This document shows, one piece after another, positions 1-55,033 of a stretch of DNA of 55,033 nt. Under the pieces are notes generated by a model. It did no database searches and was not told the DNA's origin. It saw nothing but the letters and a program-made list of their open reading frames with translations. The position numbers and the translations under genes are program-made. The stretch is from a virus. The stretch lies in the UHGV virus genome UHGV-0072939; one strand, written 5' to 3'. The first letter of the stretch is position 1. Each line of letters begins with the position of its first letter.

Positions 1-49
1 AATAAACAGTATTTCATGTACCGTTTTTACCCATTAAAAGGAGTTCACC

Positions 50-289
50 ATGTTCGTCGAACTGGTTTACGACAAACGCAATGTGGCAGGGTTACCTGGG
101 GCAAAGGAAATCATCCTGAATGAGCTGACCAAGCGAGTGCATCATATCTTCCCTGATGCAGAGGTGAGGGTTAAGCCAATGCAGGCGAACGCATTAAACA
201 GCGACTGTACCAAAACAGAAAAGGAACGGTTAAACCGCATGCTGGAGGAAATGTTCGAAGAATCTGATTTTTGGATGGTAGCCGAATAA
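50..289 (+). CDS. dinI: DinI-like DNA-damage-inducible protein
   Basis: 79-aa ORF with AAGGAG Shine-Dalgarno 8 nt upstream of ATG at 50; size and acidic C-terminal tail (EESDFWMVAE) resemble DinI family as recalled from memory. Confidence 0.75.
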   Translation: MFVELVYDKRNVAGLPGAKEIILNELTKRVHHIFPDAEVRVKPMQANALNSDCTKTEKERLNRMLEEMFEESDFWMVAE

Positions 290-412
290 TAAACTTTGTT
301 TTTGCATTGCTGTTTTATAGAATCCGCCGCCAGCCGGATATTTTCAATACTCGCACTATCGATTAAAACTGGCTGGCCGCAGCCCCTCTATATACGGGGA
401 GCTGCGGTATTT

Positions 413-793
413 TCACATTACCGGGCAGTCATCAAATTCATCAGAACGCGCATCGTTGATAATGTAGATCACGACGCCAAAAACACCACTCTCATCAAGT
501 TCTGACAGGTCGTCACACTTCAACGGGTCATCGAGTCTTTCCAGAACAGTGCTCCGGGAAAATCGAATACGGCGCAGAGTAAACTCGCCAGCAATAGCAC
601 AGATCACGATTGAACCTTCACAGGCTCTGACACCAGAGTCCACCACCAGCAACGCATCTTTCATAATACCAGCACGCCAGTACGACTGGCCGGCACGCAT
701 GAAATACGTCGAAGACGGGCTTCTGATAAGCTGTTCGTCCAGTGAAATTCTTCGCTCAACATAGTCCTGCGCTGGCGACGGAAACGGCCCCAT
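413..793 (-). CDS. UmuD'-like S24 peptidase-fold protein, starting at the position of the UmuD cleavage site, with catalytic Lys replaced by Arg
   Basis: 126 aa from ATG 793..791, which overlaps the upstream stop as TAATG; aligns by eye to E. coli UmuD residues ~25-139 (GPFPSPAQDYVE vs GFPSPAADYVE, STYF, LLVVDS, GEFT, VFGVVI); GDSM appears as GQSY and the KK after GEFT as RR. Confidence 0.7.
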   Translation of the reverse strand: MGPFPSPAQDYVERRISLDEQLIRSPSSTYFMRAGQSYWRAGIMKDALLVVDSGVRACEGSIVICAIAGEFTLRRIRFSRSTVLERLDDPLKCDDLSELDESGVFGVVIYIINDARSDEFDDCPVM

Positions 794-1035
794 TACCACA
801 CCCTCCCCATCGCGCGGAGTATCCAGTATCTGTTCTCCGTCTGCTGGGTTGTCTTGTCTGTAAAATCGCCCTGATATCTCTTGATCCAGGCGTTGGCCTC
901 CTTCTCCGTGAAAAACCATCCACGCGATCGTAATTCGCGGATAAAGTCACAGGTCTGCAGGTACTGGTAACCCTTCGGATTGAGCTGCACGGCAGCCATG
1001 AATGCAAACTGAATGTCATTTTCTCTCGGCATGAT
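793..1035 (-). CDS. hypothetical small protein (80 aa), translationally coupled to the UmuD'-like gene
   Basis: ATG at 1035..1033 preceded by GAGGTG; stop TAA 795..793 overlaps downstream ATG; no family recognised. Confidence 0.5.
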   Translation of the reverse strand: MMPRENDIQFAFMAAVQLNPKGYQYLQTCDFIRELRSRGWFFTEKEANAWIKRYQGDFTDKTTQQTENRYWILRAMGRVW

Positions 1036-1249
1036 ACACCTCTCATCAATACTGATTATACATACAGTAGTTTTAACGAGAGAGCAGATCAACCCCTGAT
1101 TTCTGGCTTTCCTGTAACCCGTTATGGGATGAAGATTTTTAGTTTTCCGGGGCAGCCGCTGGTAAACTGCGCGGCGGTTGCCAACGGCATGAACACCCGT
1201 CAACCAGCCGCAGCCCGCTCTGCATACGGCGGGGCTGCGGCGCCACAGT

Positions 1250-1446
1250 CTACTTCGCTACAGCCTCCTCTGGGTCAGGTTCAGCTGGCGCGATGAAGTT
1301 TTCACCATTCCACGCATAGCCTATAGATACTCCCCGCCCCTCGGCCAGGACAAGCTCAAGACCCTCTCCCGGATCATAATCGGTTATACCATCCCATTCG
1401 ATAACATTGACGACGAGACCATTTTGAACAACTGCGTAAATGCTCA
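1250..1446 (-). CDS. hypothetical small phage protein (65 aa); possibly a tail-fibre-assembly remnant
   Basis: internal ATG at 1446..1444 of the 149-aa ORF; the upstream part of that ORF overlaps the acyltransferase gene in another frame; function not recognised. Confidence 0.4.
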
Positions 1447-1509
1447 TATTTTCTCCATATATTAACGAAAAACCCAGCCGGAGCTGGGTTATAGAGCGTT
1501 TAGTTAACG

Positions 1510-2628
1510 TTATGCTACTGCAGGTTTTCTTTCCAGCATCCCTCTTATTGCTTTCCTTGCTGGCACTTCCACGAAGTGGAAAAGCAGCGCTGAGATTGCT
1601 ATGGTTACCAACCAATACATCACGTACATGGTAGTTGGGTTTTCTTTTAGTATATCCCCATGAAATATACGTAAGTAATTCAATATTACCTGATGACACA
1701 TATACACAGAGAAACTGATCTCACCAAGATAAACAAAGTACTTATTTGATAAAAAATTAGATATCATGCCATTTTGACGTGAAAAGACAAAAACAAGAAA
1801 ACCAATAGTAGGGAAACTACCAGCTACAGCAAGCCAGTAAAAAAACGTTGCCATTGGCGAGTTGCTCCAATATCCATATAGTGAGCTAAATGTACATAAC
1901 GACAAAAAAACAAGAATTATGCTAATTAATTCAGCAGACATAAGCCTGCGATTATTTCCTTCAACATTTACAATCTTGTTTTTCATGCTAAATACATACA
2001 TGCCAAACGCAAATTCAGCAAGCCTTGAAACTGGATTTATATACACTAAGTAATACCCATCAACTGAGTCGTTCCCTGAATGCAAGGGTATTGACATTGC
2101 GGCACAGGCAATAGAGATAACTATCGGGAACGAAATGCAAAACAGCAAAACAGAATTCCCATACTTTCTGCCAAGAACCAATAGGAACGGGAACATCGCA
2201 TAGAAAAACAACTCAGTAGACACACTCCACGAAACTGCATTGTATGAAAAATAAAACTTTTGATAAGGAATCCATGATTGCATCAAAACTGAGTTTACTG
2301 AAAACACATCAGAGTAACTCTTCCCACTCTCATAAAAAATGTTAGGACCAAAAACAAAAAGGCATGTTATCAACATAACCAAGTGCAAAGGCCATATCCT
2401 TGCAATCCTGGCAATTAAAAACCTGAGATAGCCACTTTTAATATCCATATTGTAATACGTGAAAGAAAGTATAAATCCAGACAAAACATAAAAGAAAGAA
2501 ACGGCGTTATTTAGTTGAATCGAACCAATTCTAAACACCTCAAAGCCCGGTGCATTCCCCGCATGCCCTATGACAATCATTGCGGCAGCAAAAAAACGAA
2601 TGGAGGTTAACGAATTAATTTTATTCAT
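1510..2628 (-). CDS. acyltransferase family 3 integral membrane protein (O-antigen acetyltransferase-like, serotype-conversion candidate)
   Basis: 372 aa, multiple hydrophobic helices, N-terminal SIRFFAAAMIVIGHAG motif typical of acyltransferase-3/OafA/Oac family; AT-rich composition; directly downstream of tail fibre gene. Confidence 0.8.
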   Translation of the reverse strand: MNKINSLTSIRFFAAAMIVIGHAGNAPGFEVFRIGSIQLNNAVSFFYVLSGFILSFTYYNMDIKSGYLRFLIARIARIWPLHLVMLITCLFVFGPNIFYESGKSYSDVFSVNSVLMQSWIPYQKFYFSYNAVSWSVSTELFFYAMFPFLLVLGRKYGNSVLLFCISFPIVISIACAAMSIPLHSGNDSVDGYYLVYINPVSRLAEFAFGMYVFSMKNKIVNVEGNNRRLMSAELISIILVFLSLCTFSSLYGYWSNSPMATFFYWLAVAGSFPTIGFLVFVFSRQNGMISNFLSNKYFVYLGEISFSVYMCHQVILNYLRIFHGDILKENPTTMYVMYWLVTIAISALLFHFVEVPARKAIRGMLERKPAVA

Positions 2629-2707
2629 GTTTTATCATAACTTGTCTTTGGGATTTTGATGTAAAGTAGATCATGGCATAAATGATTAGTTTATGCCATG
2701 GCGATCA

Positions 2708-3556
2708 TCATGCGTACTCGCAAACTGTCACAAATCCCTTTCCTCCATTGAAACCAGCCCTTGCGGGCTGGTTAATAAGATTGACCAAACCTCCCGCGCC
2801 AGAGCCATTTTCCCCATCACCACCAGTACCACCCGCAGAATACGGAGATGCCGCACCAGTACCAAGGTTTCCTACGGAACCATTCACCACAGTTGACCCA
2901 GCGCCGGCCTTTCCCTTAGTTGAAATAATGTTACCACCTGTAGGTGCAGTAGTTTCTGTGCTGCCCCCTCTGGAAGTTGGAAAAGAGATTGCTGTGCTTC
3001 CTGTAGATCCACCTCCGTTTCCACCAGGGCAAACAATTAAAGACCCGAAACTTGAAGTGCCACCAGTCCCACCATCGCCCCCGCCTGCCGTCCCTGCGGC
3101 ACCACCCACCCCGATAGTGACGGCTTGGGATGAGCCGATTTGCACTGCTGTAAATATCCCCTTCGCATACGCTCCCGACCCACCGGCTCCTGATGCTCCT
3201 ACACTACTGGAGCCCGTTGCAGGCACACCACCACTTCCTCCACCAGCCCCCTGAACCTCTACAATTGAGAACGTCATTCCAGGAGTAGGCGTAAAGTTTG
3301 CTGAAGATGTGAACGTCCTGACGTTAAGAAGACGCCCTGAAATGGGGAGTAGCTTTTTCAGCGCAGTCAGTACCTGGGTCATATTGTTGGGATCCAGCGT
3401 CATTCCCGCCGATTCGACTATGTTTGCCAGCTCCTCCTGCAAAGCATTAAAGGCCGGTGCGCGAAGACGCGTCGCCGGGGTTCCGCCGGCAACGTTGCCA
3501 TCGGTATATTTGCCATCGGATGTGGCAGTAGGCTCAACTTGCCCGATTCTGAGCAT
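2708..3556 (-). CDS. tail fibre protein (Gly-rich, Mu S / Stf-like)
   Basis: 282 aa, GAGGA SD before ATG 3556; long Gly/Ser/Thr-rich stretches (GGGSGG, GGTGGT) typical of side tail fibres; position after the Mu R-like gene. Confidence 0.7.
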   Translation of the reverse strand: MLRIGQVEPTATSDGKYTDGNVAGGTPATRLRAPAFNALQEELANIVESAGMTLDPNNMTQVLTALKKLLPISGRLLNVRTFTSSANFTPTPGMTFSIVEVQGAGGGSGGVPATGSSSVGASGAGGSGAYAKGIFTAVQIGSSQAVTIGVGGAAGTAGGGDGGTGGTSSFGSLIVCPGGNGGGSTGSTAISFPTSRGGSTETTAPTGGNIISTKGKAGAGSTVVNGSVGNLGTGAASPYSAGGTGGDGENGSGAGGLVNLINQPARAGFNGGKGFVTVCEYA

Positions 3557-3610
3557 GGGTCATCCTCACTTGATTAAGCGATTAAAATGAAAGTCATGAT
3601 GTTGTGTCAG

Positions 3611-4204
3611 TTATGCGTAACTGAAAATAAGACGCAGATGCGAGGGCGCAATTTTAGTGATCGCGCACTCGAGTTGTTTATTTCCCCAGGAGGCCAGAGA
3701 ATCACCGCAGTAAGATGCACCTGACAGTGCGTATTTGATGGTGGTTTGCGGGGCGTTAATCTGCCAGGTAAAAGGCCACTCATCGCCGTTCAGGGCATCG
3801 CCGCACGCCGACATACCGCACATCGCGGGGCGAAACTGTGTGATGGTGATGGTATACCCCAGCTCCGCCGCCACGCGGATGTAGTAATCGCGGTTCAGGC
3901 CGCCGGTACTGATGAGCTTTGCCACCACCAGGCGCTGGCGATCGCTGACTCCATCGATTTCACCGATAGTGCAGTCATCCGGCAGACCAAGCGTCGCTTC
4001 CCATTCCGGAAGCATACTGGTCGCAGTGGGCGGAAATGCCCCGGCAATGAGATTTACCGCATCGTCATCCGAACGCTGGAATGCACTTGCCAGGGCGCGC
4101 AGAACCGCCGCCTGTACTGTTTTTGATGCCCGTGGCCATGCCCTGCCGGTGGGCAGCAGCGCACCCAGCGCGCCGGCGTAATCATCTTTCGAAAAGAGGC
4201 TCAT
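3611..4204 (-). CDS. tail protein, YmfQ/DUF2313-like (Mu gp48 position)
   Basis: 197 aa; gene order and recalled similarity to e14 YmfQ / Mu R family. Confidence 0.65.
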   Translation of the reverse strand: MSLFSKDDYAGALGALLPTGRAWPRASKTVQAAVLRALASAFQRSDDDAVNLIAGAFPPTATSMLPEWEATLGLPDDCTIGEIDGVSDRQRLVVAKLISTGGLNRDYYIRVAAELGYTITITQFRPAMCGMSACGDALNGDEWPFTWQINAPQTTIKYALSGASYCGDSLASWGNKQLECAITKIAPSHLRLIFSYA

Positions 4205-5343
4205 ACAAAATGCACCTCACCCAGCACCGGAATTTCACCCACCGCAAACGTAATATTGGCCGTCGGAGAGTTCAGGATATAGCCCGTGGTGCCGTTAACA
4301 TCACCGATGCTCCCGTTGATATCCGAGAGATACACTTTCCCGGAGCCGTCAGGATTGGCCTCATCAAAAAACAGCGTTGTCAGCGCATCCCTGATGCCCT
4401 GTACCGTGGTGCTGTCGGCATTTTTGATCCCCGCAATTTCGACGTCGATGGTTTTCGGGACTGGAGAGCACACAAACACGATGGCTGTGTCAGTCTGCAG
4501 CGGGTAGATGTGATCGGCGACAGCCAGCTGGTCCCCGGTGGCCCTGAGCGCCCCCCAGTCTTCCAGCTGCGATATTCCGTCGGTACCGACAGGAAACCCG
4601 CCGCTGGCGTTCCGGTCACACATGATGTACACCCCGACGGTCCCGGCCCCGTTCAGGCGACGTTTTACCCACGCCCGGGTCACGCCAGGTACCTCGAGCG
4701 CCCATTTTTTATAATCGGTATCGCTGCCTCCCTGTGGCGGATTCTGCCATGCCAGCAGGCCACGGCTGCGAAACTCGTCTTCACTTTCAATGTCCGCCCC
4801 GCCGGTAGCGGCAGACAGCAGCGTCACCTGCGCATCCACCCCGGCAATATTGGCATCCAGTGTCAGAAGGGTCCCGGCATCCGCATTACCGCGGGCACCG
4901 CCCCCGGTCACATCGCTGGTGATATCCGGCAGTATGGCGGTCACGGCAACAGTACCATAGCCATTCGCCTGAATTTTCAGCTCAGCATCCGTGCGATACT
5001 GGTATCCGTCGCCACGGTTCAGGATCGTACCCGGAGGAATGATGCTGTCAGCGGCACCGGAGGCCTGTGCCGATGGCGATTTCGCGGCCATGGCTGGTTT
5101 ACGAAAAACCTGCTTCATGGCCATCCATCCTGCCTGGAACTCATCGGTAGACGTGAACGGGTTCGTCTGCAGGGCTATATAGTCCAGGTAGGCGTAGTGC
5201 AGATGTCCCATCCCGGCATCCATATCGGCGAGCACTTTCAGGTTAGCGAAGCGCAGCAGCGCGCCGACTCCCTCCAGCTCCGCCTGCATAAACTTCCGGT
5301 TTCCGTCACGCAGCTCGCTGAGCGTCGGTCGTTTAAACGGCAT
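4201..5343 (-). CDS. baseplate J-like protein (Mu gp47 / P2 gpJ family)
   Basis: 380 aa; synteny within Mu-like baseplate block; ATGA overlap with neighbours. Confidence 0.8.
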   Translation of the reverse strand: MPFKRPTLSELRDGNRKFMQAELEGVGALLRFANLKVLADMDAGMGHLHYAYLDYIALQTNPFTSTDEFQAGWMAMKQVFRKPAMAAKSPSAQASGAADSIIPPGTILNRGDGYQYRTDAELKIQANGYGTVAVTAILPDITSDVTGGGARGNADAGTLLTLDANIAGVDAQVTLLSAATGGADIESEDEFRSRGLLAWQNPPQGGSDTDYKKWALEVPGVTRAWVKRRLNGAGTVGVYIMCDRNASGGFPVGTDGISQLEDWGALRATGDQLAVADHIYPLQTDTAIVFVCSPVPKTIDVEIAGIKNADSTTVQGIRDALTTLFFDEANPDGSGKVYLSDINGSIGDVNGTTGYILNSPTANITFAVGEIPVLGEVHFV

Positions 5344-5344
5344 A

Positions 5345-5782
5345 TTAACGTTGCTCCCATATCCAGTAAAACCTGAATTCCTGCCAGTCTTTGCCCGGTG
5401 CCAGATACCGGATGATGAGGTTCAGGCGGTTCGGCATGACGATCTGCGCAACGGGGATAACATCGCTGACCACGCCATCATCCTTAAGCCAGGCAAGAGC
5501 CTCGCGCGCATATTCCTCCGCTCTTTTCGCCACGTCGGTCGTCAGTTTCTGCCTCCGGAGTAACCACAACCTTGACCCGAGCTGCGATTCATCACCAGAA
5601 TCCCCCCACCAGCCACGGCGATCGCTGCCTTCATAATCGTCATCCGCGCGCGCCAGCCGGTCGGTAAACAGGCTGTCCAGTATCGCGGTCTGTAAATCGT
5701 ACCCGGTGGTGAGTGCACCCGGGCCTTCCTGCCAGTCGGCAACCATCTCGTCCACGTTCCAGAAAGAGGCAATGTCGCTCAT
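5345..5782 (-). CDS. baseplate protein, Mu gp46-like
   Basis: 145 aa; position between V-like and J-like genes; recalled GP46 family features. Confidence 0.7.
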   Translation of the reverse strand: MSDIASFWNVDEMVADWQEGPGALTTGYDLQTAILDSLFTDRLARADDDYEGSDRRGWWGDSGDESQLGSRLWLLRRQKLTTDVAKRAEEYAREALAWLKDDGVVSDVIPVAQIVMPNRLNLIIRYLAPGKDWQEFRFYWIWEQR

Positions 5783-6363
5783 GTCACCTGCTCCTCGGGT
5801 TGTTCACTGCGGATATCGTCATTGCCTCTCTGGGCATTTTTAACCAGGTGATCGTGGTCGTTGTGTGCATCCCGCAGGTCTTTCAGCGTTCTGCTGTTGG
5901 TGTCGCAATTGTCCACGATGTCGCCGGTACATCTCAGAAGCGGGGTGTTCGCCAGAATCCCCTTGCTGGCGTTAATGGTCACGCTTGTGGCGTTGTTGAC
6001 TTCCACATCCCTGCCTTTTGCATCGACAAATACCCCCTCTTTGGTCAACAGCACCTCCTGCCCCCACTGGCTGTAGATAACGGTTTCGCCGTCTTTCAGC
6101 CCGGTGCGCCGGTACCCCTGATGATTCGTGGCAATGACCACCGGACTTGAACGGTCACCGCCAATAAAGGCCAGGACCACGTCGGTGCCTTTTGGCAGCC
6201 CGGAAGAAAAGCCAAACTCGGCGAGCCGCGGCGCGCTGGCGACCTCAAGCGGCGTCTGGTACTGAACAGTCTGCACAACACCACTGTCTTTCAGCGCAGT
6301 GATCCGGCCAATGCCCAGCATGCTGGCGATGCGGGTGGCGGCGCGCCTGACTAACTGGTTCAT
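5779..6363 (-). CDS. baseplate assembly protein V-like (Mu gp45)
   Basis: 194 aa; synteny; N-terminal OB-like region typical of gpV spike proteins. Confidence 0.7.
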   Translation of the reverse strand: MNQLVRRAATRIASMLGIGRITALKDSGVVQTVQYQTPLEVASAPRLAEFGFSSGLPKGTDVVLAFIGGDRSSPVVIATNHQGYRRTGLKDGETVIYSQWGQEVLLTKEGVFVDAKGRDVEVNNATSVTINASKGILANTPLLRCTGDIVDNCDTNSRTLKDLRDAHNDHDHLVKNAQRGNDDIRSEQPEEQVT

Positions 6364-7445: not shown

Positions 7446-8845
7446 TGTCTCAGTACCTTCATGGTTACCGGCATAAACGCCGGATGCGGAACGCGCGCTT
7501 CCTGCACCAGTTCATCCGCACGGGCGGCATCCTGATACAGCCGGTTAGCCAGTGTCAGCGCCGGAAGGGGCTGCGCCATCGTGACCTGAATCAGTTCGCT
7601 CAGCCCGGATGCGCGATCGCTCATTGTGGCTAAAAAGGAAGATCTGATGGCGAGCAGACTGCCATACATACCGTCCTCCGCCCGGTCACCGGCCAGCACC
7701 AGCGCCTTATCCAGCTGAACAGAAACCCGCTGCGTTATCGCTTCAGCCTCATCGCGGCTGGTCGGGCTGGCATCAGCCGCTGCGCGGGTCATGGCCCCCG
7801 TGCACAACACAACGATCAGCGTGTTCATGGTCGCGGATATCGCCTTGCTGCTGTCGGATTGCTGGTATTCCGTGCTGATGGCATTAGCCAGTTTTTCCAG
7901 TGCTGAGATCCGGTCATTCACGCTGCCGGCACTGTCAAGAATGGCATTCACAACATCGGCGACACCCTGCACAAAGTCATCCGGGTTGGTTGAGTTATTC
8001 AGATGATCCACGGTATCGGTGATGTTTTTCCGGTCCATCACCGACTGCGCGGTCACCTGGTCGGCAAGCGCCTGAGTGTCCTCCACGTCGGCAGTCGGCG
8101 TATTGCCTGAAACAGCGGAAGAGCTACCACCGACTGGCCCCTTGCTGTAACGGCCATATTGCGTATTTCCAAACGTGGAATTCAGGACGTTACTGAGGTT
8201 TGTGACTTCGCTGATGGTGCTGTCCACCATATTCGTCCAGAACGTGACGGTACCTTTAATGGTGTTGATCGCCTGCGTAACACCGCGGATTTCACCCTTT
8301 ATCCTGGCGAGCGTACTGGCGACCGTCGTGCTCACCAGTTTCAGGTAGTTGGTGTTTACCGTATCGCCTGCGGTGGTACTGTCCGTGACCGCAAATACTT
8401 TAAGGCCTGACTCAATCGCCATCAGGGTGAACTCAAACACTCGGCCATTTTCTGTCGATCCGGAAATACGCAGACCGTTTTCAGGAATAGAAACCGTTAA
8501 TTCGCCGAGCGTCGGGTGGATCAGGGTACCGCTTCCCTTTGCTTCACAGGCGGCGATCAGCGACTGACGCTGGGTAATGGCATCGCCGCCGCCGTAGACC
8601 TGGCTGTTCTGGATAAGGAACCCGCGAATAATAAACCGCCGGGTGGCGCGGCCGATATCTTCAATCCACGCGGTATCACGCCAGGGGTACTCATGCACGG
8701 CCTGACGACGGCCGTGGCTGCCCTCTTCTGCCACAACGGCAAACGGCACGCCGCGAAACGAGCTGGCGCGCAGCTGGCTCTGCCAGTCATCGCTGGCACC
8801 ACCACCCATCAGGGACGTTATTACATCCTGGATAACTGGCATCAC
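7442..8845 (-). CDS. DNA circulation protein N-like (Mu gp43)
   Basis: 467 aa; position immediately downstream of tape measure; recalled family resemblance. Confidence 0.65.
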   Translation of the reverse strand: MMPVIQDVITSLMGGGASDDWQSQLRASSFRGVPFAVVAEEGSHGRRQAVHEYPWRDTAWIEDIGRATRRFIIRGFLIQNSQVYGGGDAITQRQSLIAACEAKGSGTLIHPTLGELTVSIPENGLRISGSTENGRVFEFTLMAIESGLKVFAVTDSTTAGDTVNTNYLKLVSTTVASTLARIKGEIRGVTQAINTIKGTVTFWTNMVDSTISEVTNLSNVLNSTFGNTQYGRYSKGPVGGSSSAVSGNTPTADVEDTQALADQVTAQSVMDRKNITDTVDHLNNSTNPDDFVQGVADVVNAILDSAGSVNDRISALEKLANAISTEYQQSDSSKAISATMNTLIVVLCTGAMTRAAADASPTSRDEAEAITQRVSVQLDKALVLAGDRAEDGMYGSLLAIRSSFLATMSDRASGLSELIQVTMAQPLPALTLANRLYQDAARADELVQEARVPHPAFMPVTMKVLRQ

Positions 8846-8911
8846 GCCTCCGGAAATAAAAAACCGCCAGAGCGGCGGTTAACATTGCTGATAGCGACCG
8901 GAATTTCTCGG

Positions 8912-10717
8912 TCAGTAAGACATGGGCAGCGTGATCCTGCCACCATCCCGGGTAATGTATTCCTTCCGTTCCCCTTTCCCGTCCACCATAGTGATTTCAA
9001 GCTTCATCTTTTGCTCTTCCATGGCACTTTTAAATGAGCGGGTGAGGTTTTCGGTCAGCACCTGCCCCGAGGCGCCCCCCTGCGATGCTGGCTGGATAAT
9101 GCCGGTTCCGGCCGTTCGCTCCGTCACCGGGGCGTCAGAAAAAACATTGTCAGGCGGATTTTCTGCATTAATGATCCGCTGGTAATGTCCAAGTACCGCG
9201 CCGGGATAGGCCTGATTTTCCTGCCCCCACCGGCGGGTGTCGTAACCGCCGTTGTAATATCGAAGCGCCAGCGGAACATTACCGCCCGAATTCTTCAGGT
9301 TCTCGGACAGAATTTGCGCACCTGCCATGATGTTTTGCCGCGGGTCGGTCCAGTCGGTAACGCCGGTCGACTGGAAATTTGACGGCATGATCTGCATCAG
9401 CCCTTTAGCCCCGGCTTTGCTGACTGCCTGCGGGTTACCTCCGGACTCCTGGGTCATTATGGCCTTCAGCAAGCGGGGATCCACACCGTATTGCTTGCCG
9501 GCTTCATTGAGTAGAACGTCATACTGTCCGCCCTGGTTATACGGTACATAGTTATTGCCGCCGACAGCAGGTCGGGTAATGGCAGCCATATCATCCTGCA
9601 GCTGGTTCGCCGTATCCGTCGCCCGGTAATTCGCATCGTAGCGTTTGCTCACGGCATCCGTCATAAACCCGGCATCCACCATCCCGCGCTCGCTGCGGGG
9701 CAGGCTGTTATAGAGTTCCTTGTCACCCTGAATACGGCGCAGTTTGGCCGCGTCCGCGCTGCTGATAAACCCCAGCGCATGCGACAGGCCGGTGAAATCG
9801 CCGTTGGTAAACAGGTCTGTCACGCCCTCGAGGCCGTCTTTCACCGACCCGTCGGAAAGCAGGCCTTTGAACAGCTTATTCTGCGATCGCTGCTTCAGTC
9901 CATCCCATGAGGCGCCCAGTTCGTTCATCGTGCCGTTGATATCGGACAGTTGTTTATTAAGTTCGGGATCGACCGTCAGCCCAAACGTATCGGATTTCGC
10001 CAGCAGGGTTTTCATGCGCTCGCCTTCACGCATCAGCGCCAGCATTTCAGGGGTAAAACCCATCGCATCAGCGACAGATTTCTGCTGCTCTGGTCGCAAC
10101 GTCGGGAACACGCGCGCGATCTCTTCCATGGTTTTGAGCGTATCGACTGAACCATCCTTGTTTTTCTGGATCTGCACACCAATTTGCGACAACGCGCCAA
10201 GGACCTGACCGTTTGCACCGCTGGCCGCTTCCTTCAGCGTTTTTGCCATCCCTTCAATCGATGCATTTGCGCTTTCGCTGTCAGCCCCCAGAATACGCAT
10301 GGCGCCCGCGAGCCGGGTAAAATCATCAACCCGCATACCGGCGTTTTTCGACGCTGTATCCAGGTTATACGCCTCCCGGGAGGCCTCCCGAAAACCGTAG
10401 GCAACCTGCTGAAGGCCATATCCTGCCGCCCCAACAGCACCGAGCGCACCCAGCTTGCCGGAGATTTCCCCCACCATTTTTAGCGGGGGAACCATATCAC
10501 CGATGAACTGCACGTTATCCCGCGCGCTCTTCGACATATTCTCCAGGCGTGAAATAAAACCGTTCAGCCCGTCGACCGTCTCCTGGCCGCCTAACTGGAG
10601 CCCTTCTTTGGTTTTATTCAGTTTCGGTTCCAGATCGCGGATAGCTTCGTCAATCCGGGTTATCGCGTCACTGACCTGATCGCTGGCCACCAGCTCAAAA
10701 TCAAAAGAATTACTCAT
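8912..10717 (-). CDS. tail tape measure protein with C-terminal lytic transglycosylase (SLT) domain
   Basis: 601 aa; C-terminal LLKAIMTQESGGNPQAVSKAGAKGLMQIMPSNF matches the SLT catalytic motif (ES...GLMQ); position after chaperone pair. Confidence 0.8.
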   Translation of the reverse strand: MSNSFDFELVASDQVSDAITRIDEAIRDLEPKLNKTKEGLQLGGQETVDGLNGFISRLENMSKSARDNVQFIGDMVPPLKMVGEISGKLGALGAVGAAGYGLQQVAYGFREASREAYNLDTASKNAGMRVDDFTRLAGAMRILGADSESANASIEGMAKTLKEAASGANGQVLGALSQIGVQIQKNKDGSVDTLKTMEEIARVFPTLRPEQQKSVADAMGFTPEMLALMREGERMKTLLAKSDTFGLTVDPELNKQLSDINGTMNELGASWDGLKQRSQNKLFKGLLSDGSVKDGLEGVTDLFTNGDFTGLSHALGFISSADAAKLRRIQGDKELYNSLPRSERGMVDAGFMTDAVSKRYDANYRATDTANQLQDDMAAITRPAVGGNNYVPYNQGGQYDVLLNEAGKQYGVDPRLLKAIMTQESGGNPQAVSKAGAKGLMQIMPSNFQSTGVTDWTDPRQNIMAGAQILSENLKNSGGNVPLALRYYNGGYDTRRWGQENQAYPGAVLGHYQRIINAENPPDNVFSDAPVTERTAGTGIIQPASQGGASGQVLTENLTRSFKSAMEEQKMKLEITMVDGKGERKEYITRDGGRITLPMSY

Positions 10718-27211: not shown

Positions 27212-28081
27212 GTGACCAATACTACTTCTTTTCAGATCTTCTATGATGCAGAAGATACTGAATTGGCACAGCATAAAATTGATGCAAAAACACTTAGCAT
27301 TTCCATAGGTTCTATGGCTGATTTGATTTCAGCCGCTGATAAACGGCTTAACGACGGTCAACAAACTGTGAAGTTGATGGTTACAAACCCGGCGGAGGCT
27401 GGCTCTCTCGGCGTATCCTATACGATGATGGAGCTTGTTCCGCATGCAATCAATGTTGCGAAAGTGATCGGATTGACAGGGTTAGCTGGCGCCGCAATTG
27501 GTGCACCTGCATTATCATTAATTCGACAGTTGGGAAGTAAGAAAGTCATTTCCATCACGAAACGAGCTGGTACAGACCAATCCGTTCTTGAGCTCGAAGG
27601 TGAAGAAATTGTTTGTCATGATTCTGTAGCCAAGCTAGTGACTGATCCAGAGATTAGGAATGCTTTAGTGAACGTAGTGCGAGCACCTTTAGACGGGAAA
27701 GAAGGCGCAGTGTTCAAAGTTCTGAATGAAGACGGTGTTGAAGTCGTGCGCTTGGAAGGTGAAGAAACTGAGGAAATAAAACCGCTTCCTAGGGGCACTT
27801 TGCTGGAAAAAGAAGAATCAGTGGAAGAAGTAAACGTAAGATTCGTCCAAATAAACTTCGAAGGAACAAAAGGTTGGAGGATTGAGTACCTCGGAGAGGA
27901 ACACGCTGTTTCGTTTGAGGATCAACTTTTTATACATCAAGTCCAAAATGGGATTGTTAGTTTCACCAAAGAAGATTTGTTTGTAGTTGACCTCAAAACA
28001 ACAAAAACTTTCACTGCACGTAATGCTTCAACCAAGTATGCTATAACCAGAGTTAAGCGAAAACGCCCTGCTGAGGCTTGA
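27212..28081 (+). CDS. hypothetical protein (289 aa), first gene of AT-rich three-gene operon
   Basis: long ORF; GTG at 27212 is the first in-frame start after a stop; a 10-codon upstream ORF (ATG 27180) ends TAG overlapping this GTG; no family recognised. Confidence 0.5.
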   Translation: MTNTTSFQIFYDAEDTELAQHKIDAKTLSISIGSMADLISAADKRLNDGQQTVKLMVTNPAEAGSLGVSYTMMELVPHAINVAKVIGLTGLAGAAIGAPALSLIRQLGSKKVISITKRAGTDQSVLELEGEEIVCHDSVAKLVTDPEIRNALVNVVRAPLDGKEGAVFKVLNEDGVEVVRLEGEETEEIKPLPRGTLLEKEESVEEVNVRFVQINFEGTKGWRIEYLGEEHAVSFEDQLFIHQVQNGIVSFTKEDLFVVDLKTTKTFTARNASTKYAITRVKRKRPAEA

Positions 28082-28137: not shown

Positions 28138-28347
28138 ATGATCATTCCTACCTTTAGTCGTTTCTGCTATTCGGCATCTGCTTTGCTATGGCGTCGATTG
28201 TTTCCTACCAGGACCTTTGAGTTCCGGTATCACGATGAAGATACTGGTACAACTAAAACACTCATTGTTAAGGTACCAAGAAAAAACGGGAAAATGCTTA
28301 CCAGTCTTATTGATGAGGCTATTTCGGAGAATTCAAAACAAAAATGA
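28138..28347 (+). CDS. hypothetical small protein (69 aa)
   Basis: ATG 28138 with GGAG SD 7 nt upstream; stop TGA overlaps next ATG (ATGA). Confidence 0.45.
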   Translation: MIIPTFSRFCYSASALLWRRLFPTRTFEFRYHDEDTGTTKTLIVKVPRKNGKMLTSLIDEAISENSKQK

Positions 28348-28766
28348 GTTCTCAAAGTAAAGGGTTAAGTACTGGAAAAGCGACACTTTCCACTGGAGGT
28401 TGGGGAGCAATACTCAGCGTTTTAGTTGGTGCTGTTCTTACCGACCCCAACAGTGTGTGGAGGACGGTTGCTTATGCCCTAGTGCCAGGTGTTGCTGCTG
28501 TCCTTACCTACGTGATGAATTGGTTCATTTCTCGGCATGGGTTTGAATCACCAGAAGATGCAGCTAAACGAGCGAAGTGTAAACGCGATTTAGCAGAGAT
28601 CGAAAAACAGCTACGTTCAGAGCATTTAACCTCTGAAATTGAATCTAGGCTGATGCAGGCAAAGGCCAAGACAATTGAAATACTCGTTTCTATTGGCAGC
28701 GACTCAATCCTTGAGGCCTCATCACGTTCGAGCCAACTACCAGATACTGCCGGGCCCAAAGGCTGA
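28344..28766 (+). CDS. hypothetical membrane protein (140 aa, two predicted TM helices, charged C-terminal half)
   Basis: hydrophobic segments GGWGAILSVLVGAVL and VAYALVPGVAAVLTYVMNWFI; translationally coupled to upstream gene. Confidence 0.55.
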   Translation: MSSQSKGLSTGKATLSTGGWGAILSVLVGAVLTDPNSVWRTVAYALVPGVAAVLTYVMNWFISRHGFESPEDAAKRAKCKRDLAEIEKQLRSEHLTSEIESRLMQAKAKTIEILVSIGSDSILEASSRSSQLPDTAGPKG

Positions 28767-28788: not shown

Positions 28789-29154
28789 TCAATTATCCAT
28801 TTCAAGTCGAATATCAAGCATAGCCAAACATCCGTCTATAAATCCTTCTGCCATCTGCATCTCAATTCGGATCAATTTTTCGTCTTTTTTGCGCATCTTT
28901 GCAATCTTGCGTTTTGAAATGCCATAAAGGTAATGAGCTACCAGAAGAGAATGCTCATATGGCTTTCTTTTCTTTAATTGAGCCAAACACCCTTCAATGA
29001 TGAGAGCATCATCATCGGTACAGGACAATCGCGATTTACTACTCTGTGGCAAGAGCCCCTTAAACCCTGCCGCAATTGGTGAATAATCAACGCCAGAGTT
29101 GTCACTGGCCGCCCATCCTCCCCAGCATTCCAGGACTTTTTGCATATCACGCAT
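28789..29154 (-). CDS. late-gene antitermination protein Q-like
   Basis: 121 aa; position upstream of lysis genes; recalled Q-family resemblance. Confidence 0.6.
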   Translation of the reverse strand: MRDMQKVLECWGGWAASDNSGVDYSPIAAGFKGLLPQSSKSRLSCTDDDALIIEGCLAQLKKRKPYEHSLLVAHYLYGISKRKIAKMRKKDEKLIRIEMQMAEGFIDGCLAMLDIRLEMDN

Positions 29155-42839: not shown

Positions 42840-43045
42840 ATCTTGAATGCGTACCCATATCAACTTACTGCCGTGACTCCGGCGAGACCGTAGAAGCTGT
42901 TAATAAACGGATACAAAGGGGATTATGGCAGGAAGGGGTCCATATATTAAAGATCGATGGCGTAAAAGAGCGCTGGATTGATTTAACTGAGGTCACGAAA
43001 TGGGCGAGAAAAAACAAGGATCCTTACAGCTCCCACGCGGTATAA
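42836..43045 (+). CDS. excisionase-like protein
   Basis: 69 aa immediately upstream of and overlapping the integrase gene. Confidence 0.5.
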   Translation: MNLECVPISTYCRDSGETVEAVNKRIQRGLWQEGVHILKIDGVKERWIDLTEVTKWARKNKDPYSSHAV

Positions 43046-44175
43046 CCGCGCGCCATCATAAGAACGGCTCAACACTTATTATCACGTTCACATATAAAGG
43101 GGTTCTATGCCGGGAACCCCTTTCCCGTATCGAGCTGAATCCAAAGGGTATAAAATATGCAGAACGCCTCCTGGGAGAGGTTCAGAACAGAATTGCGGAG
43201 GGTGATTTCGATTATGCCAAATACTTCCCAAAATCTAAGAAGTTGGATATTTTTGGGAAAGTTAACCGGACAAAAAACATCAAGTCTTATCTCGATGAAT
43301 ATCTGGAGATCTGCGCAAATCGAAACTTATCGCCATCGACAATTGGAGGGTATGAAAAATGCCTCTCAGCTCTGTCTGATTTACATAAACTACACGTCGC
43401 CGAGCTTACACCGGCAGTATTGAAAAACTGGATCGCCAGCCGGAAAACAAAGCTTAAAACGATACGAAACAACCTCTCATTTTTGCGTAGCGCAATCGAT
43501 GAGGCAGTGACTGATGGGCTGTTGACGATAAACCCGGTTACGCTTGTCAGCGCCAGCCGGTACCACGTGATCGACAGCACGCCGAACCCCGACGATTACG
43601 AGGTGGATCCGTTCACACCTGCAGAGGCCAGCGCCATTTACATGCACTGCAGGTTTCAGGAATGGGAAAACCTGTTCCGCTTTGCATTTAACACCGGGAT
43701 GCGTAGTTCTGAACTGTGCGCGTTGCGCTGGCCTGATATCGACTTTATCGAGAATACTGCTCACGTTCAGGCAGCCAGCGTTGTCGGTGTGCTGAAGGGT
43801 ACCAAGACAAAAGCTGGTACCCGTAAAGTCGAGCTGAATAGCGATGCGCTGTCGGCGCTGCAGGCGCAAAAGCCATTCACCTTTATGAAGAGCGATTTCA
43901 TCTTCAGCGATCCTAAAACAGAGAAACCATGGGCAAACGCTGATGCGATTCGAAAAAAGGCCTGGGTCCCCACGTTGAAGAAAGCAGGAGTTCGGTACCG
44001 AAACCCATATCAAACACGCCATACGTTCGCTACGCGCCACATCAGCCAAGGCGTTAACCTTTTCTGGTTGGCCGGGCAAATGGGGCACAAAGGACCGGAA
44101 ATGTTGTTCCGTCACTATGGTTCCTACCTGGCTGCTTATGATGGGAAAACGGCAATTGAAGCGAGGAAATTTTGA
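43000..44175 (+). CDS. tyrosine integrase (lambda Int family)
   Basis: 391 aa; C-terminal catalytic region with R...HTFATRH...Y pattern (RHTFATRH, HYGSY). Confidence 0.9.
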   Translation: MGEKKQGSLQLPRGITARHHKNGSTLIITFTYKGVLCREPLSRIELNPKGIKYAERLLGEVQNRIAEGDFDYAKYFPKSKKLDIFGKVNRTKNIKSYLDEYLEICANRNLSPSTIGGYEKCLSALSDLHKLHVAELTPAVLKNWIASRKTKLKTIRNNLSFLRSAIDEAVTDGLLTINPVTLVSASRYHVIDSTPNPDDYEVDPFTPAEASAIYMHCRFQEWENLFRFAFNTGMRSSELCALRWPDIDFIENTAHVQAASVVGVLKGTKTKAGTRKVELNSDALSALQAQKPFTFMKSDFIFSDPKTEKPWANADAIRKKAWVPTLKKAGVRYRNPYQTRHTFATRHISQGVNLFWLAGQMGHKGPEMLFRHYGSYLAAYDGKTAIEARKF

Positions 44176-44283: not shown

Positions 44284-44319
44284 TTTCGGACACGGGTTCA
44301 ACTCCCGCCAGCTCCACCA
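44284..44319 (+). other. prophage attachment site: partial copy of the tmRNA (ssrA) 3' end
   Basis: TTTCGGACACGGGTTCAACTCCCGCCAGCTCCACCA matches the recalled 3' end of E. coli tmRNA with one mismatch; upstream sequence is not tmRNA, so this is a partial att copy. Confidence 0.7.
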
Positions 44320-44448
44320 ATCATGATTGGACGGTGTAAGGACAACACCAACAAAAACAGGAAGTTAGAAGTCTCAGCAAAACACCGACCAGACGGTGAG
44401 GAGACATAAAAGGATACGCAAAGGAGCCGCGGCTCCTGGTAACATGAA

Positions 44449-44470
44449 AGCCCACAGATGTGGGCTTTTT
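44449..44470 (+). terminator. intrinsic terminator hairpin (bidirectional context)
   Basis: AGCCCAC-AGAT-GTGGGCT followed by TTTTT; lies just past the 3' end of the minus-strand autotransporter gene. Confidence 0.6.
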
Positions 44471-44479
44471 CGTTGATGG

Positions 44480-49060: not shown

Positions 49061-49429
49061 AAATTTCATCCTCTGAAAAGTGAATACTGAGTAGCGTTTA
49101 AGCGACCTTAGCTTTGCTGCAACATCAGCCCACAGGCACCAGACCAGGGGATTCATCCTGAAGAGACAGCGCAAGTGTATTGTGTTCACCGCTCATCAAA
49201 GACATCATGATGAAATGATGATATTCCGCATAAGAATGAGGCATTTTTTAAACGCAGTGCGCTGAAGTGTGGTTGGATAAAAAAGTCAATCCATTCAGGA
49301 AATACGGGCGTATTCTTTTCTTTCGACAATGAGGCCGTTGGCAAAATAAAATGATTTACATAATCGTTTCTGATGAATATCTTCTGCTCACATAAAAATC
49401 ACACAATAACTTTGAGATCGCAGATTGTT

Positions 49430-49700
49430 TTACTTTTACAGCATTCGTCCCCCCATTGTTGGGCAAATATAGATTGGGCCAGAGCACGAAAGTTAATACC
49501 ACGTTCGCACAGCTCCTCCAACAGCACGACAAGATGCCACATACTGCGCCCCAGTCGGTTCAGTTTACAGACTAGCAGTGCGTTCCCTGCCGATGATGTC
49601 CTGACCAGTTTTTTCAGTCCGGACCTCCTGCCACGGTTTTACGTTGAAGTGGTAACCCTGAGCACGCAGTTCTTCAGTCAGGCGTGGTGCACCGTAACGC
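49430..49700 (-). pseudogene. remnants of a serine recombinase (invertase/resolvase) and possibly an IS3-family transposase fragment
   Basis: minus-strand translation gives KLNRLGRSMWHLVVLLEELCERGINFRAL (resolvase-like core without N-terminal catalytic Ser) and [15 protein letters not shown] in another frame; no intact ORF. Confidence 0.4.
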
Positions 49701-49971
49701 TGTTATTGCTGGGTAAGATCAAAAAACTTTCAGGCAGCTAAGGAAAGTTGAACCAGACATTAGATGAAATATTTCAACCAATTACAGCACCAATTCAGTC
49801 ACTGCCAGCCCACCAAATAAATCAAGGGGTTACATGAAAACGTAGCCCCTTTTTCTTTGGTAGTGACACTAAAATGGATGTAGTGTGAAGAATAATCCCG
49901 TTTACTCAATCAATAATACATATTGTTTCAATCTACGTTATTATCTCTTTGTAAAAATTGCCATTTATTAA

Positions 49972-50763: not shown

Positions 50764-50862
50764 ACAGACATTTGGCGGCGTTTCTAAAATAACACTACGC
50801 GTACTACTTGGCTTAAGTAAACCAACATGAAAATCACTTTTTCTTATATTATCGAAAAGGTT

Positions 50863-51345
50863 CTATTCATTTCTTTTAGCGCATTCAAAAAACTGATCGG
50901 CATTATTTTTATTCGATAATTTTTTAGTTTCAGAAAACACATTTTCATTGTTTTCCAGCTTTAGTTTAATGAGAAGATTTTCCCAGACCTGCTTGCTTAA
51001 ACATATTACGTCAGGCTCACCAGAACTAACTAACTCGTGATTATTATTAAAGTGTACGTTGAATACCTTTAAGTTATTTTCACCAACTTCATATTTAATA
51101 CGTTTTAATTGTTCTCCAGTTCCCATAATGACAAAGGCGTTGCCTTCTTGATATATACATTCAGACATCATTTTTTGTAAAGTTTCAAGAGCACCGCGAT
51201 ACGTCTCTGATGCAGCTTCCTTACAAATTAATTTTAAAATACTATGAGCTAGTAGCTCCATGTGTTTAGAAGATTTATTTTCATTATAACTTCCACTACC
51301 CAAAACTGCGCTAGCGTTAAATCCGTTGCTTTTACTAACTAACAT
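50863..51345 (-). CDS. hypothetical protein (160 aa), AT-rich
   Basis: ORF in AT-rich DNA; no family recognised. Confidence 0.45.
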   Translation of the reverse strand: MLVSKSNGFNASAVLGSGSYNENKSSKHMELLAHSILKLICKEAASETYRGALETLQKMMSECIYQEGNAFVIMGTGEQLKRIKYEVGENNLKVFNVHFNNNHELVSSGEPDVICLSKQVWENLLIKLKLENNENVFSETKKLSNKNNADQFFECAKRNE

Positions 51346-54983: not shown

Positions 54984-55033
54984 TTTAATGTTATATCTGC
55001 CCCGATAAAACGGGGCAGATAATATGTTTAGTT

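Follow-up and report, generated by a model that had tools for sequence, protein, structure and literature searches.

A predicted AT3-only membrane acyltransferase gene inserted between the genes of a glycine-rich tail fibre and its small partner protein in an Escherichia coli prophage

Introduction

The closest described counterparts of the locus analysed here are the acyltransferase-3 (AT3) genes of temperate phages. In the Shigella phage Sf6, the oac gene encodes the O-antigen 2-O-acetylase of RhaI, an AT3-only polytopic protein of 333 residues. The gene lies right after the receptor-binding protein gene and near the prophage end, on the opposite strand and with its own annotated promoter. 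Sf6 itself belongs to the P22-like podoviruses, and its tailspike is enzymatic. In the lambdoid Shigella phage SfII, which has a Mu-like tail, the AT3 gene oacD is responsible for the 6-O-acetylation of GlcNAc and is found between the attachment end and the genes for the fibre and Tfa, just past the latter. It is encoded on the opposite strand, the fibre-Tfa pair before it is intact, and gtrABC accompany it. Two temperate E. coli phages of the epsilon15-like podovirus type, the O157 phage phiV10 and TL-2011b, have an AT3 gene directly after the tail fibre or spike gene, and phiV10 Oac is annotated as O-antigen acetylating and with superinfection immunity. The Salmonella enzymes OafA and OafB (GtrC family II) contain in addition an 11th transmembrane helix and a periplasmic SGNH domain, the latter being needed for the transfer. 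In the lambdoid phages HK97 and HK022, morons are gene-plus-terminator units.

Here we analysed a stretch of 55,033 nucleotides from the virus genome UHGV-0072939, termed the window, in which an AT3 gene had been predicted from the letters of the sequence. The original prediction regarded the gene as an O-antigen acetylase-like moron that occupies the place of a tail fibre chaperone and is linked to the fibre specificity of the phage.

Results

The AT3 gene follows the tail fibre gene of a lambdoid prophage

The host of the element is E. coli, and the window contains a lambdoid prophage of roughly 44.6 kb with a Q antiterminator and a Mu-like contractile tail, integrated at ssrA. At the far prophage end, a copy of the ssrA 3' end was found as the att core (44284-44319; 36 nt that match the tmRNA gene of L007 at its 3' end, with 97% identity), beside the integrase gene (43000-44175). 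The other end, with an intact ssrA and smpB, lies just left of position 1. The prophage was found in human-gut metagenomes, and the O-antigen locus lies outside the window. Q is encoded on the minus strand (28789-29154; PF06530, E=2.2e-53) and defines a late operon on that strand, which in the ORF map spans the lysis, head, tail and fibre genes, the AT3 gene and a gene for a 65-residue protein. The AT3 gene and the ssrA end of the prophage are about 1.8 kb apart. The phage type closest to this myovirus-tailed phage is SfII, which has a baseplate J protein 32% identical to that of the window.

The last conserved baseplate gene before the fibre encodes a Mu gp48-like protein (3611-4204, minus strand; PF10076, E=1.8e-31). 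It is followed by the tail fibre gene (2708-3556, minus strand, 282 residues), whose N-terminus matched many PHROG tail-fibre families and whose C-terminus matched Gly_rich_2 (PF21722) below the cut-off with an E-value of 2.9e-4. The fibre consists of a conserved baseplate-attachment part of about residues 1-70 and a glycine-rich C-terminal domain ending in VTVCEYA, and relatives lacking the glycine-rich domain share only residues 1-70. E. coli relatives whose baseplate is 79% identical have a gp53-like fibre, a Tfa and an invertase in place of everything beyond fibre residue 61 or so, and the breakpoint with them lies inside the fibre gene at about position 3372. The AT3 gene (1510-2628, minus strand) begins 79 nt downstream of the fibre gene and was thus confirmed to follow it directly, as in Sf6, SfII and phiV10.

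The protein has the predicted fold and the motifs of an AT3-only acyltransferase

The 372-residue product matched the Pfam family PF01757 (Acyl_transf_3) with 94.4 bits at a cut-off of 31 (E=9e-27), and its residues 5-350 cover positions 2-325 of the 326 in the profile. It also matched the PHROG family phrog_3333, annotated as O-acetyltransferase, with an E-value of 1.3e-45. Its assignment as a polytopic acyltransferase of the Oac/OafA superfamily was upheld. Neither the AT3 protein nor the fibre or the 65-residue protein had a match in NCBIfam, in PADLOC or among the sequences of the PDB.

The sequence motifs of the family were examined in two alignments, one with 10 and one with 60 sequences. 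The R/K-X10-H motif of AT3 proteins is located in transmembrane helix 1 and corresponds to Arg14/His25 in OafB (PMC9833829). In the window protein it is represented by R11 and H22, which were invariant in both alignments. The RXXR motif, which in AT3 proteins is placed at the cytoplasmic face in transmembrane helix 3, is R74-I-A-R77 with both arginines invariant. Work on Lag1 has defined the motif V-X-X-F-F-X-(I/V/L)-S-G-(F/W/Y) (PMC9558356), and V43-S-F-F46-Y47-V-L49-S50-G51-F52 fits to it with one conservative change, a tyrosine in place of the second phenylalanine; V43, F46, S50 and G51 were invariant. W134 and E139 were conserved in both alignments as well. The invariant motifs are those given as essential in the literature (PMC9833829, PMC9558356), and the essential OafB residues R14/H25 and R71/R74 correspond to R11/H22 and R74/R77 of the window protein (PMC9833829).

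An AlphaFold2 model of the protein was all-helical with about ten long transmembrane helices (pLDDT 92.8, pTM 0.92), whereas a crude hydropathy scan gave only 6 strongly hydrophobic segments. The top PDB fold match of the model was HGSNAT with a probability of 0.96-0.99 and a TM-score of 0.41-0.51, and the HGSNAT fold has been united with that of AT3 (PMC12423673). The protein is therefore modelled as a ten-helix transmembrane fold with a central cavity, in line with the predicted polytopic topology. An SGNH-fused enzyme of the OafA type was rejected, since the sequence stops after the AT3 domain. With neither the 11th helix nor the SGNH domain of OafA and OafB, the window protein would therefore complete the transfer itself or rely on a partner.

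A low-GC cassette separates the fibre gene from an intact partner gene

Downstream of the AT3 gene, the gene of the 65-residue protein was found at 1250-1447 on the minus strand, with a GGAG Shine-Dalgarno sequence at 1453-1456 and the motif VVNVIEWDG. The open reading frame had been noted before at 1250-1446; its existence was verified, but its upper coordinate is one base higher. It had also been considered a possible remnant of a fibre assembly chaperone. This was refuted, because the protein is a full-length member of phrog_14370 (E=3.7e-11, positions 2-60 of the 63-position profile) and the usual next-downstream partner of glycine-rich fibres. In 15 unrelated loci (L013, L014, L023, L040, L048, L049 and L052-L060) its homologues start at most 16 nt from the stop codon of such a fibre gene. 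Stand-alone homologues of 62-73 residues are common in this family of roughly 60-73 residues, and in L013 and L048 the homologue is fused as the N-terminal part to a Caudo_TAP C-terminal domain. The 65-residue protein itself matched no family in Pfam or NCBIfam, Caudo_TAP (PF02413) included, and no Caudo_TAP-like sequence was detected anywhere in the window, nor was a fragment found downstream of the gene in any frame. Judged from these sequence relationships, the gene would encode a candidate mini-chaperone or partner of the glycine-rich fibre. Since the protein is full-length and a regular fibre partner, the AT3 protein does not replace a chaperone, and the view that it stands in the chaperone's place had to be abandoned: the AT3 gene is inserted between the fibre gene and its intact partner.

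The gap between fibre and partner is 1260 nt in the window compared with the 16 nt or less in the 15 loci. This shows that a low-GC cassette of about 1.24 kb, consisting of a hairpin, the AT3 gene and a terminator, was inserted between two otherwise contiguous genes. The AT-rich character of the gene was borne out by its GC content of 36.8% (GC3 37.5%), as compared to 54.8% for the tail fibre gene, 57.9% for the gp48-like gene and 54.6% for the whole prophage. The hairpin at 2672-2700 (minus strand) is an 11-bp stem-loop without a U-tract, starting 8 nt past the fibre stop codon (-13.9 kcal/mol, z=-4.6). The intrinsic terminator at 1465-1490 (minus strand) has the sequence AACCCAGC-tccg-GCTGGGTT followed by U5 and lies 20 nt past the AT3 stop codon (-16 kcal/mol, z=-4.05). 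An Rfam search of positions 1-5000 gave only sub-threshold chance matches. With its foreign GC content, its own terminator and its absence from that slot in relatives, the gene has the anatomy of a moron, as proposed. Like the lambdoid morons, it is a gene of deviant composition that lies between two genes adjacent in relatives and is followed by its own terminator.

The trio of fibre, AT3 and partner genes was found again in two diverged contigs, L062 and L061. The identity of the AT3 protein to that of the window is 75% in L062 and 50% in L061, and for the fibre C-terminus the values are 77% and 47%; the partner of L061 is 43% identical. The three genes thus show a similar degree of divergence. 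The low GC content of the AT3 gene relative to its surroundings was seen in both contigs. The hairpin sequence is identical in L062, and L061 has a different hairpin at the same place. The terminator is kept in both despite the divergence of the AT3 proteins, with a stem one base pair shorter by the deletion of one base per arm. The insertion is old and now lies within a conserved three-gene module, which distinguishes it from the lambdoid morons. The proposed link of the AT3 gene to the fibre specificity is strengthened, as the gene lies within an exchangeable host-range cassette and, in two further lineages, its divergence is close to that of the fibre C-terminus.

Expression signals of the AT3 gene

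No GGAG-like Shine-Dalgarno sequence precedes the AT3 start codon at 2628, which agrees with the original prediction. A scan with the sigma-70 consensus detected no site in the 79-nt spacer and 4 promoter-like sites overall, compared with a chance expectation of 4.4. When the spacer between fibre and AT3 genes was aligned three ways, no conserved -35/-10 pair emerged. By eye, the best candidate is TTTACA-20 nt-TATGAT, with a spacer that is too long. A convincing promoter, the defining element of the lambdoid morons, was thus not identified by these approaches.

These signals bear on the possibility that the enzyme acts mainly late in the lytic cycle. Expressed with the fibre in a Q-dependent manner, it would modify the receptor by acetylation on dying cells and cell debris, so that released virions are not lost to them, similar to the masking by Llp of T5. 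The gene is co-oriented in the late operon between fibre and partner, Q is present, and the failure to find a convincing promoter fits to such a scheme, as does the missing Shine-Dalgarno sequence, which suggests a low expression. The strong terminator, however, is conserved across 50% protein divergence and would be without a role if only antiterminated transcripts crossed it. In addition, O-antigen modification would affect newly made units, so little change of the surface is expected minutes before lysis, and in the homologous arrangements that have been described, expression takes place from the prophage, with Sf6 oac as the example of an annotated promoter of its own. We consider a mainly late lytic role unlikely. 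The conserved terminator rather suggests that the AT3 gene is also transcribed without antitermination, in the prophage state.

Distribution and conservation of the AT3 gene

The exact AT3 protein is encoded in about 34 E. coli draft-genome contigs, its homologues number more than 2400, and dN/dS of the gene is 0.13 against the 75%-identical homologue. The open reading frame can therefore not be a chance occurrence. For positions 1200-2720, none of 5,426 complete E. coli genomes contained near-identical DNA, nor was any detected in 50,697 phage records, where only the dinI gene had a match, of 81%. Both this rarity and the missing expression signals would suit a passenger that is inactive or hitch-hiking and has no present function. 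Such a passenger is very improbable, as the frame is intact, every catalytic motif is conserved, dN/dS is 0.13, the same protein recurs in the draft contigs and three lineages, with protein sequences up to 50% different, have kept the gene in the same place.

Close AT3 homologues (43-50% identity) adjoin the fibre or Tfa gene in other prophages, and in L011 and L023 the same slot holds unrelated AT3 genes. In contrast, two close homologues were found on plasmid-like contigs away from fibres. In a metagenome scan that covered 80 distant homologues (25-44% identity) and not the close clade, only 1 of the 80 was next to tail genes, and a scan of viral contigs for AT3 gave no pattern match.

Relation to the characterised acetylases and the probable acceptor

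The closest phage homologue is gp49 of TL-2011b, which is 33% identical over the full length (E=2e-42) and is itself uncharacterised. An alignment with Sf6 Oac had been suggested as a check. Similarity was confirmed in the first 100 residues or so, but orthology was not supported, because the match is limited to 102 N-terminal residues with 29% identity (E=9e-6). In the multiple alignment the two proteins are 21% identical and share the R-x10-H, VxxFFxxSG and RxxR motifs. SfII OacD had no significant pairwise similarity to the window protein (E=2.9), and phiV10 Oac was 19% identical in the alignment. On these comparisons, the window protein is orthologous to none of the characterised enzymes Sf6 Oac, SfII OacD and phiV10 Oac. 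The arrangements differ as well. The window gene is co-oriented inside the late operon, unlike Sf6 oac, and it splits a fibre-partner pair that in SfII, with Tfa as the partner, is intact. No gtr genes were seen with the window AT3 gene, in contrast to SfII, and the phages Sf6, phiV10 and TL-2011b are podoviruses, unlike the window phage.

The lack of orthology to any O-antigen acetylase leaves room for another acceptor. The same enzyme could act on a group 1/4 or K capsule, colanic acid, the enterobacterial common antigen (ECA), the LPS core or periplasmic glucans, or the group that it transfers could be a different acyl residue, such as the succinyl of OpgC and IcaC. Klebsiella plasmids carry the closest named homologue. 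The sequence of an AT3 protein does not reveal its substrate. AT3-only proteins are known to take acceptors as different as ECA, EPS, PNAG, Nod factors and legionaminic acid (PMC9558356), and in Klebsiella the acetyltransferases of prophages are reported to be associated with the capsule type (PMC13123978). Against this, the characterised enterobacterial phage AT3 proteins encoded beside a receptor-binding protein, those of Sf6, SfII and phiV10, all modify the O-antigen. The E. coli chromosome, moreover, already encodes AT3 enzymes that serve ECA and OPG, namely WecH and OpgC. Another glycan or acyl group is therefore rather unlikely, and we retain the O-antigen as the probable acceptor.

Discussion

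Taken together, we propose that the gene is a moron in the host-range cassette of the prophage and that its product is a functional transmembrane O-acyltransferase of the AT3-only type, which probably acetylates the O-antigen. We assign to this reading a probability of about 0.6. By analogy with the AT3 family, acetyl-CoA from the cytoplasm would enter the central cavity, where R11, R74 and R77 form the lining, and the acetyl group would be presented near H22 at the periplasmic face. A polysaccharide of the envelope, most likely the O-antigen repeat unit, would then accept it at a hydroxyl group. O-acetylation of the surface glycan might change the serotype and mask the receptor of the phage's own glycine-rich fibre and of similar phages, leading to superinfection exclusion. 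After its insertion, the AT3 gene may have been inherited and exchanged with the fibre and partner genes as one unit, and Q-antiterminated late transcripts would have to cross the cassette for the expression of the 65-residue protein.

More tentatively, and with somewhat less than an even chance in our estimate, the glycine-rich receptor-binding domain, the AT3 protein and the mini-chaperone may form a three-gene host-range cassette that diverges and recombines as a unit. A new receptor specificity would then bring along the matching receptor-masking enzyme, and the 65-residue VVNVIEWDG protein would belong to an uncharacterised, widespread class of fibre partners or chaperones.

Temperate phages are known to alter the cell surface against related phages, and by analogy the AT3 gene of this E. 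coli prophage would be a new example. If the enzyme is active, the prophage represents a previously undescribed serotype-converting element of E. coli, and it may alter O-antigen typing, antibody recognition and the response to therapeutic phages for which the same glycan is the receptor. With the conserved cassette of fibre, AT3 and partner genes, it can be tested in a simple way whether the recognition of a receptor and its masking move together in exchanges. Likewise, the family of the 65-residue protein provides a handle on the assembly of glycine-rich fibres, a type of receptor-binding domain that is widespread but unstudied.

The acyltransferase and its neighbours

The genes considered here lie on the minus strand: a Mu gp48-like baseplate gene (3611-4204, PF10076), a gene for a 282-aa tail fibre (2708-3556), a 79-nt spacer, the acyltransferase (AT3) ORF of 372 residues (1510-2628; PF01757, phrog_3333), a 62-nt spacer and a 65-aa ORF (1250-1447; phrog_14370). 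The original prediction of an AT3 gene after the tail fibre, in AT-rich DNA and with no strong Shine-Dalgarno (SD) sequence, was borne out in every detail save one coordinate, since it had ended the 65-aa ORF at 1446, one base short. The GC content of the AT3 gene is 36.8% (GC3 37.5%) compared with 54.8% for the fibre gene, 57.9% for gp48 and 54.6% for the whole prophage, and the sliding GC profile is below 40% from about 2700 to 1500. No SD sequence was found ahead of the AT3 start codon ATG at 2628 (upstream sequence ..AGTTATGATAAAACATG), whereas GGAG stands five bases upstream of the start of the 65-aa ORF.

The AT3 protein matched nearly the entire Acyl_transf_3 profile of Pfam (PF01757; 94.4 bits, cut-off 31) and phrog_3333, annotated as O-acetyltransferase (E=1.3e-45). 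Essential or highly conserved in this family are R/K-X10-H in transmembrane helix 1, RXXR at transmembrane helix 3 and V-X-X-F-F-X-(I/V/L)-S-G-(F/W/Y) (PMC9833829, PMC9558356). They correspond to R11...H22, R74-I-A-R77 and V43-S-F-F-Y-V-L-S50-G51-F52. In an alignment of 10 sequences that takes in Sf6 Oac, phiV10 Oac and TL-2011b gp49, the residues R11, H22, V43, F46, S50, G51, R74, R77, W134 and Y309 were invariant, and among 60 sequences of its own subfamily 30 columns were invariant, E139 and E354 among them. An AlphaFold2 model built from the latter alignment (pLDDT 92.8, pTM 0.92) predicts only helices, about ten of them long, and no additional domain. In a Foldseek search of the PDB, human HGSNAT structures solved by cryo-EM ranked highest (probability 0.96-0.99, TM-score 0.41-0.51); their fold was united with AT3 in 2025 (PMC12423673). 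Against a 75%-identical homologue dN/dS was 0.13. The low dN/dS, the retained motifs and the confident model show that the gene is intact and under purifying selection. That it is an inert passenger is very improbable.

The 65-aa ORF and the insertion of the cassette

The 65-aa ORF had been put forward as a possible remnant of a tail fibre chaperone whose expected place the AT3 gene occupies. It matched phrog_14370 (function unknown) with E=3.7e-11 over positions 2-60 of the 63-position profile. Related prophages were gathered with the gp48 protein from a genome collection and with the 65-aa protein from viral contigs. At every locus with upstream sequence available, the stop codon of a fibre gene precedes the start of the homologue (consensus ..YA.V..G.VVNVIEWDG..) by 0-16 nt, and these fibres have a glycine-rich C-terminus ending in ..G.V.I.EY(A/L/F/W). 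Such loci are L013 (Citrobacter youngae, homologue at 8604-9008), L014 (Salmonella, ~8581-8766), L023 (Sodalis), L040 (Acetobacter), L048, L049 and L052-L060 (around 5001 in each). Most of the homologues stand alone with 62-73 residues; those of L013 and L048-L050 continue into a fused Caudo_TAP domain at the C-terminus (PF02413, E=9e-21 and 4e-14). No Caudo_TAP-like sequence was detected in any frame of the 55-kb window. The near-complete profile match, the fibre-abutting homologues and the lack of Caudo_TAP in the window rule out the remnant reading, and the ORF is an intact member of a family of fibre partners. This family spans very different phages, with GC contents from about 35% to 70%.

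In the window the fibre and partner genes are 1260 nt apart. An 11-bp hairpin (2700-2672, minus strand; -13.9 kcal/mol, z=-4.6) starts 8 nt past the fibre stop codon, and a canonical intrinsic terminator (1490-1465, minus strand; -16 kcal/mol, z=-4.05) follows the AT3 gene, so that the inserted unit consists of hairpin, AT3 gene and terminator. Because the homologues abut their fibres, the gap here is 1260 nt and the window contains no Caudo_TAP, the AT3 gene was inserted in front of an intact partner and displaced no chaperone.

The prophage and its host

Exact-sequence look-up traced the AT3 and 65-aa proteins, the integrase and the proteins of the chromosomal flank to E. coli, and the exact AT3 protein was found on about 34 contigs. 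Contigs with the identical fibre run on into ssrA (tmRNA), smpB, ratA, bamE, recN, nadK and grpE, and at the other prophage end a 36-nt copy of the ssrA 3' end (44284-44319) adjoins the integrase gene (43000-44175). Since both ends lie at ssrA sequence, a prophage of ~44.6 kb is integrated at ssrA. It is lambdoid with a Q-type late operon: downstream of the Q antiterminator gene (28789-29154, minus strand; PF06530, E=2e-53), and likewise on the minus strand, come the genes for holin, lysozyme, spanin, terminase and head, and those for a contractile tail like that of Mu. Nothing close to region 1200-2720 turned up in 5,426 complete E. coli genomes, nor anything close to region 1-4300 in 50,697 phage records, dinI excepted.

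Two plus-strand ORFs, 27212-28081 (289 aa) and 28344-28766 (140 aa), oppose the late operon between Q and the lysis genes, in the position that toxin genes occupy in Stx phages; Pfam gave no match for either. The ssrA-proximal end carries genes for a DinI-like protein (50-289, plus), a UmuD/peptidase S24-like protein (413-919, minus; 126 aa long as called in public contigs) and a 79-aa protein of phrog_3893, function unknown (793-1032, minus). Similar DinI and S24 genes come after the fibre module in L013, L016, L061 and L151. Beyond the attachment site, the chromosomal flank 44320-55033 (42% GC, with a 1569-aa ORF at 44480-49189, minus) looks like another island beside ssrA.

Neighbourhoods of related AT3 genes

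Where contigs were usable, the closest AT3 relatives belong for the most part to prophages and adjoin a fibre or Tfa gene. P0004 (50% identity) lies in the fibre-AT3-partner trio treated in the next section. P0015 of Yersinia enterocolitica (43%) follows gp48, fibre and Tfa at the prophage end; P0009 (44%) stands between a Gly_rich_2 fibre with Tfa and a second AT3 gene with lysis genes; P0008 of Pseudomonas (44%) lies after tail genes and Tfa, with lysis genes and another AT3 gene downstream; and P0005 (48%) is found where two AT3 genes lie between DinI genes. P0006 (Klebsiella) and P0010 are on plasmid-like contigs. Tail genes adjoined only one of 80 more distant metagenome homologues; therefore the phage association belongs to the close clade and not to the wider subfamily. 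The gp48-related prophages L011 (Edwardsiella) and L023 hold unrelated AT3 genes (23-26% identity) in the same slot.

In L150 (5001-7395), L064 (5337-9137) and L151 (1528-4017), two different AT3 genes are adjacent or only a short distance apart in the vicinity of fibre or lysis genes, which suggests that a single phage may alter the surface in more than one way. Nearest among sequenced phages is Citrobacter phage phiNP (L065; 59% identity in the baseplate J protein). There the slot beyond fibre and Tfa (8256-9448) holds a gene annotated as serine acetyltransferase, and a HicAB toxin-antitoxin pair and then a DinI-like gene come next; the cargo of the slot therefore varies.

A sister prophage with baseplate genes 79% identical to those of the window was present in 33 of the 5,426 complete E. 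coli genomes. Its similarity ends at ~3372 (fibre residue ~61), beyond which it has a gp53-like fibre, two Tfa genes and an invertase. Most relatives found with gp48 likewise share only fibre residues 1-70. These breaks within the fibre gene place the AT3 gene inside an exchangeable host-range module. The sister prophage is integrated elsewhere, beside tonB/yciI; in L067 (E. coli 2022CK-00450, 3409-6185) a Mu-like invertible segment comprises a gp53-like fibre, two opposed Tfa genes and a recombinase. In an 8774-bp Yersinia pekkanenii contig (L021, 2328-8772), baseplate J, gp48 and the fibre N-terminus occur in three tandem copies with a period of about 2.29 kb, either a real amplification or an assembly artefact.

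Evolution of the trio

Two contigs, L062 and L061, share with the window the order of glycine-rich fibre, hairpin, low-GC AT3 gene, terminator, SD sequence and partner. L062 is 75% identical in AT3 and 77% in the fibre C-terminus; L061, whose baseplate module is unlike that of the window, is 50% identical in AT3, 47% in the fibre C-terminus and 43% in the partner. Fibre, AT3 and partner have thus changed by comparable amounts. The trio is old and appears to travel with the fibre specificity.

The terminator-SD segment is kept in all three sequences with 48 invariant columns. Between L061 and L062 it is ~95% identical, compared with 56.6% for their AT3 genes at the DNA level, and both AT3 proteins end in ..SRRQVTA. 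Such a contrast is a sign of recombination at the borders of the cassette and suggests a breakpoint at the 3' border between these two contigs. The ~95%-identical stretch (L061 6325-6405, L062 1829-1913) also covers the partner start and the last AT3 codons.

Expression and comparison with serotype-converting phages

A consensus scan detected no promoter in the fibre-AT3 spacer, and its 4 promoter-like sites compare with 4.4 expected by chance. The partner gene is on the far side of the terminator, so late transcripts modified by Q have to pass through the cassette to reach it. That AT3 serves chiefly in the late lytic phase is nevertheless unlikely in our estimate: the terminator was kept while the protein diverged to 50% identity, which argues for entry of non-antiterminated transcription into the AT3 gene as well. 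A moron expressed from the prophage would need such transcription.

Serotype-converting phages classically carry an AT3 gene directly behind the gene for the receptor-binding protein. Like the window, Sf6 has this order (tailspike, oac, int), as has phiV10 (tail fibre, oac), whose oac is annotated 'acetylates the host O-antigen; functions in superinfection immunity'. The order in SfII, also lambdoid with a Mu-like tail, is fibre, Tfa, oacD, gtrABC, int, and in TL-2011b it is gp48, gp49. The window protein is AT3-only, as is Oac; the SGNH domain found in OafA and OafB is missing. Among the compared phage enzymes the uncharacterised TL-2011b gp49 was closest (33% over the full length, E=2e-42); Sf6 Oac matched only in its N-terminal 102 residues (29%) and SfII OacD not at all (E=2.9). 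By these comparisons the window protein is an analogue and superfamily member and not an orthologue of the characterised enzymes.

From family knowledge, acetyl-CoA would be the acyl donor, transfer would occur at the periplasmic face near H22, and the acceptor would be a surface glycan, most likely the O-antigen; a different glycan is a less probable acceptor, at about one chance in four. Modification of the O-antigen would change the serotype and block adsorption. The proposal of a surface-modifying moron tied to the fibre is supported as far as sequence analysis reaches, with an intact AT3, foreign GC content, its own terminator and a position inside the host-range module.

The AT3 itself is of a well-known kind, and the conserved fibre-AT3-partner cassette is the one mildly new feature. 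A by-product of some interest is the uncharacterised 65-aa partner family with the VVNVIEWDG motif, which is probably a hitherto undescribed dedicated partner or chaperone of glycine-rich fibres.
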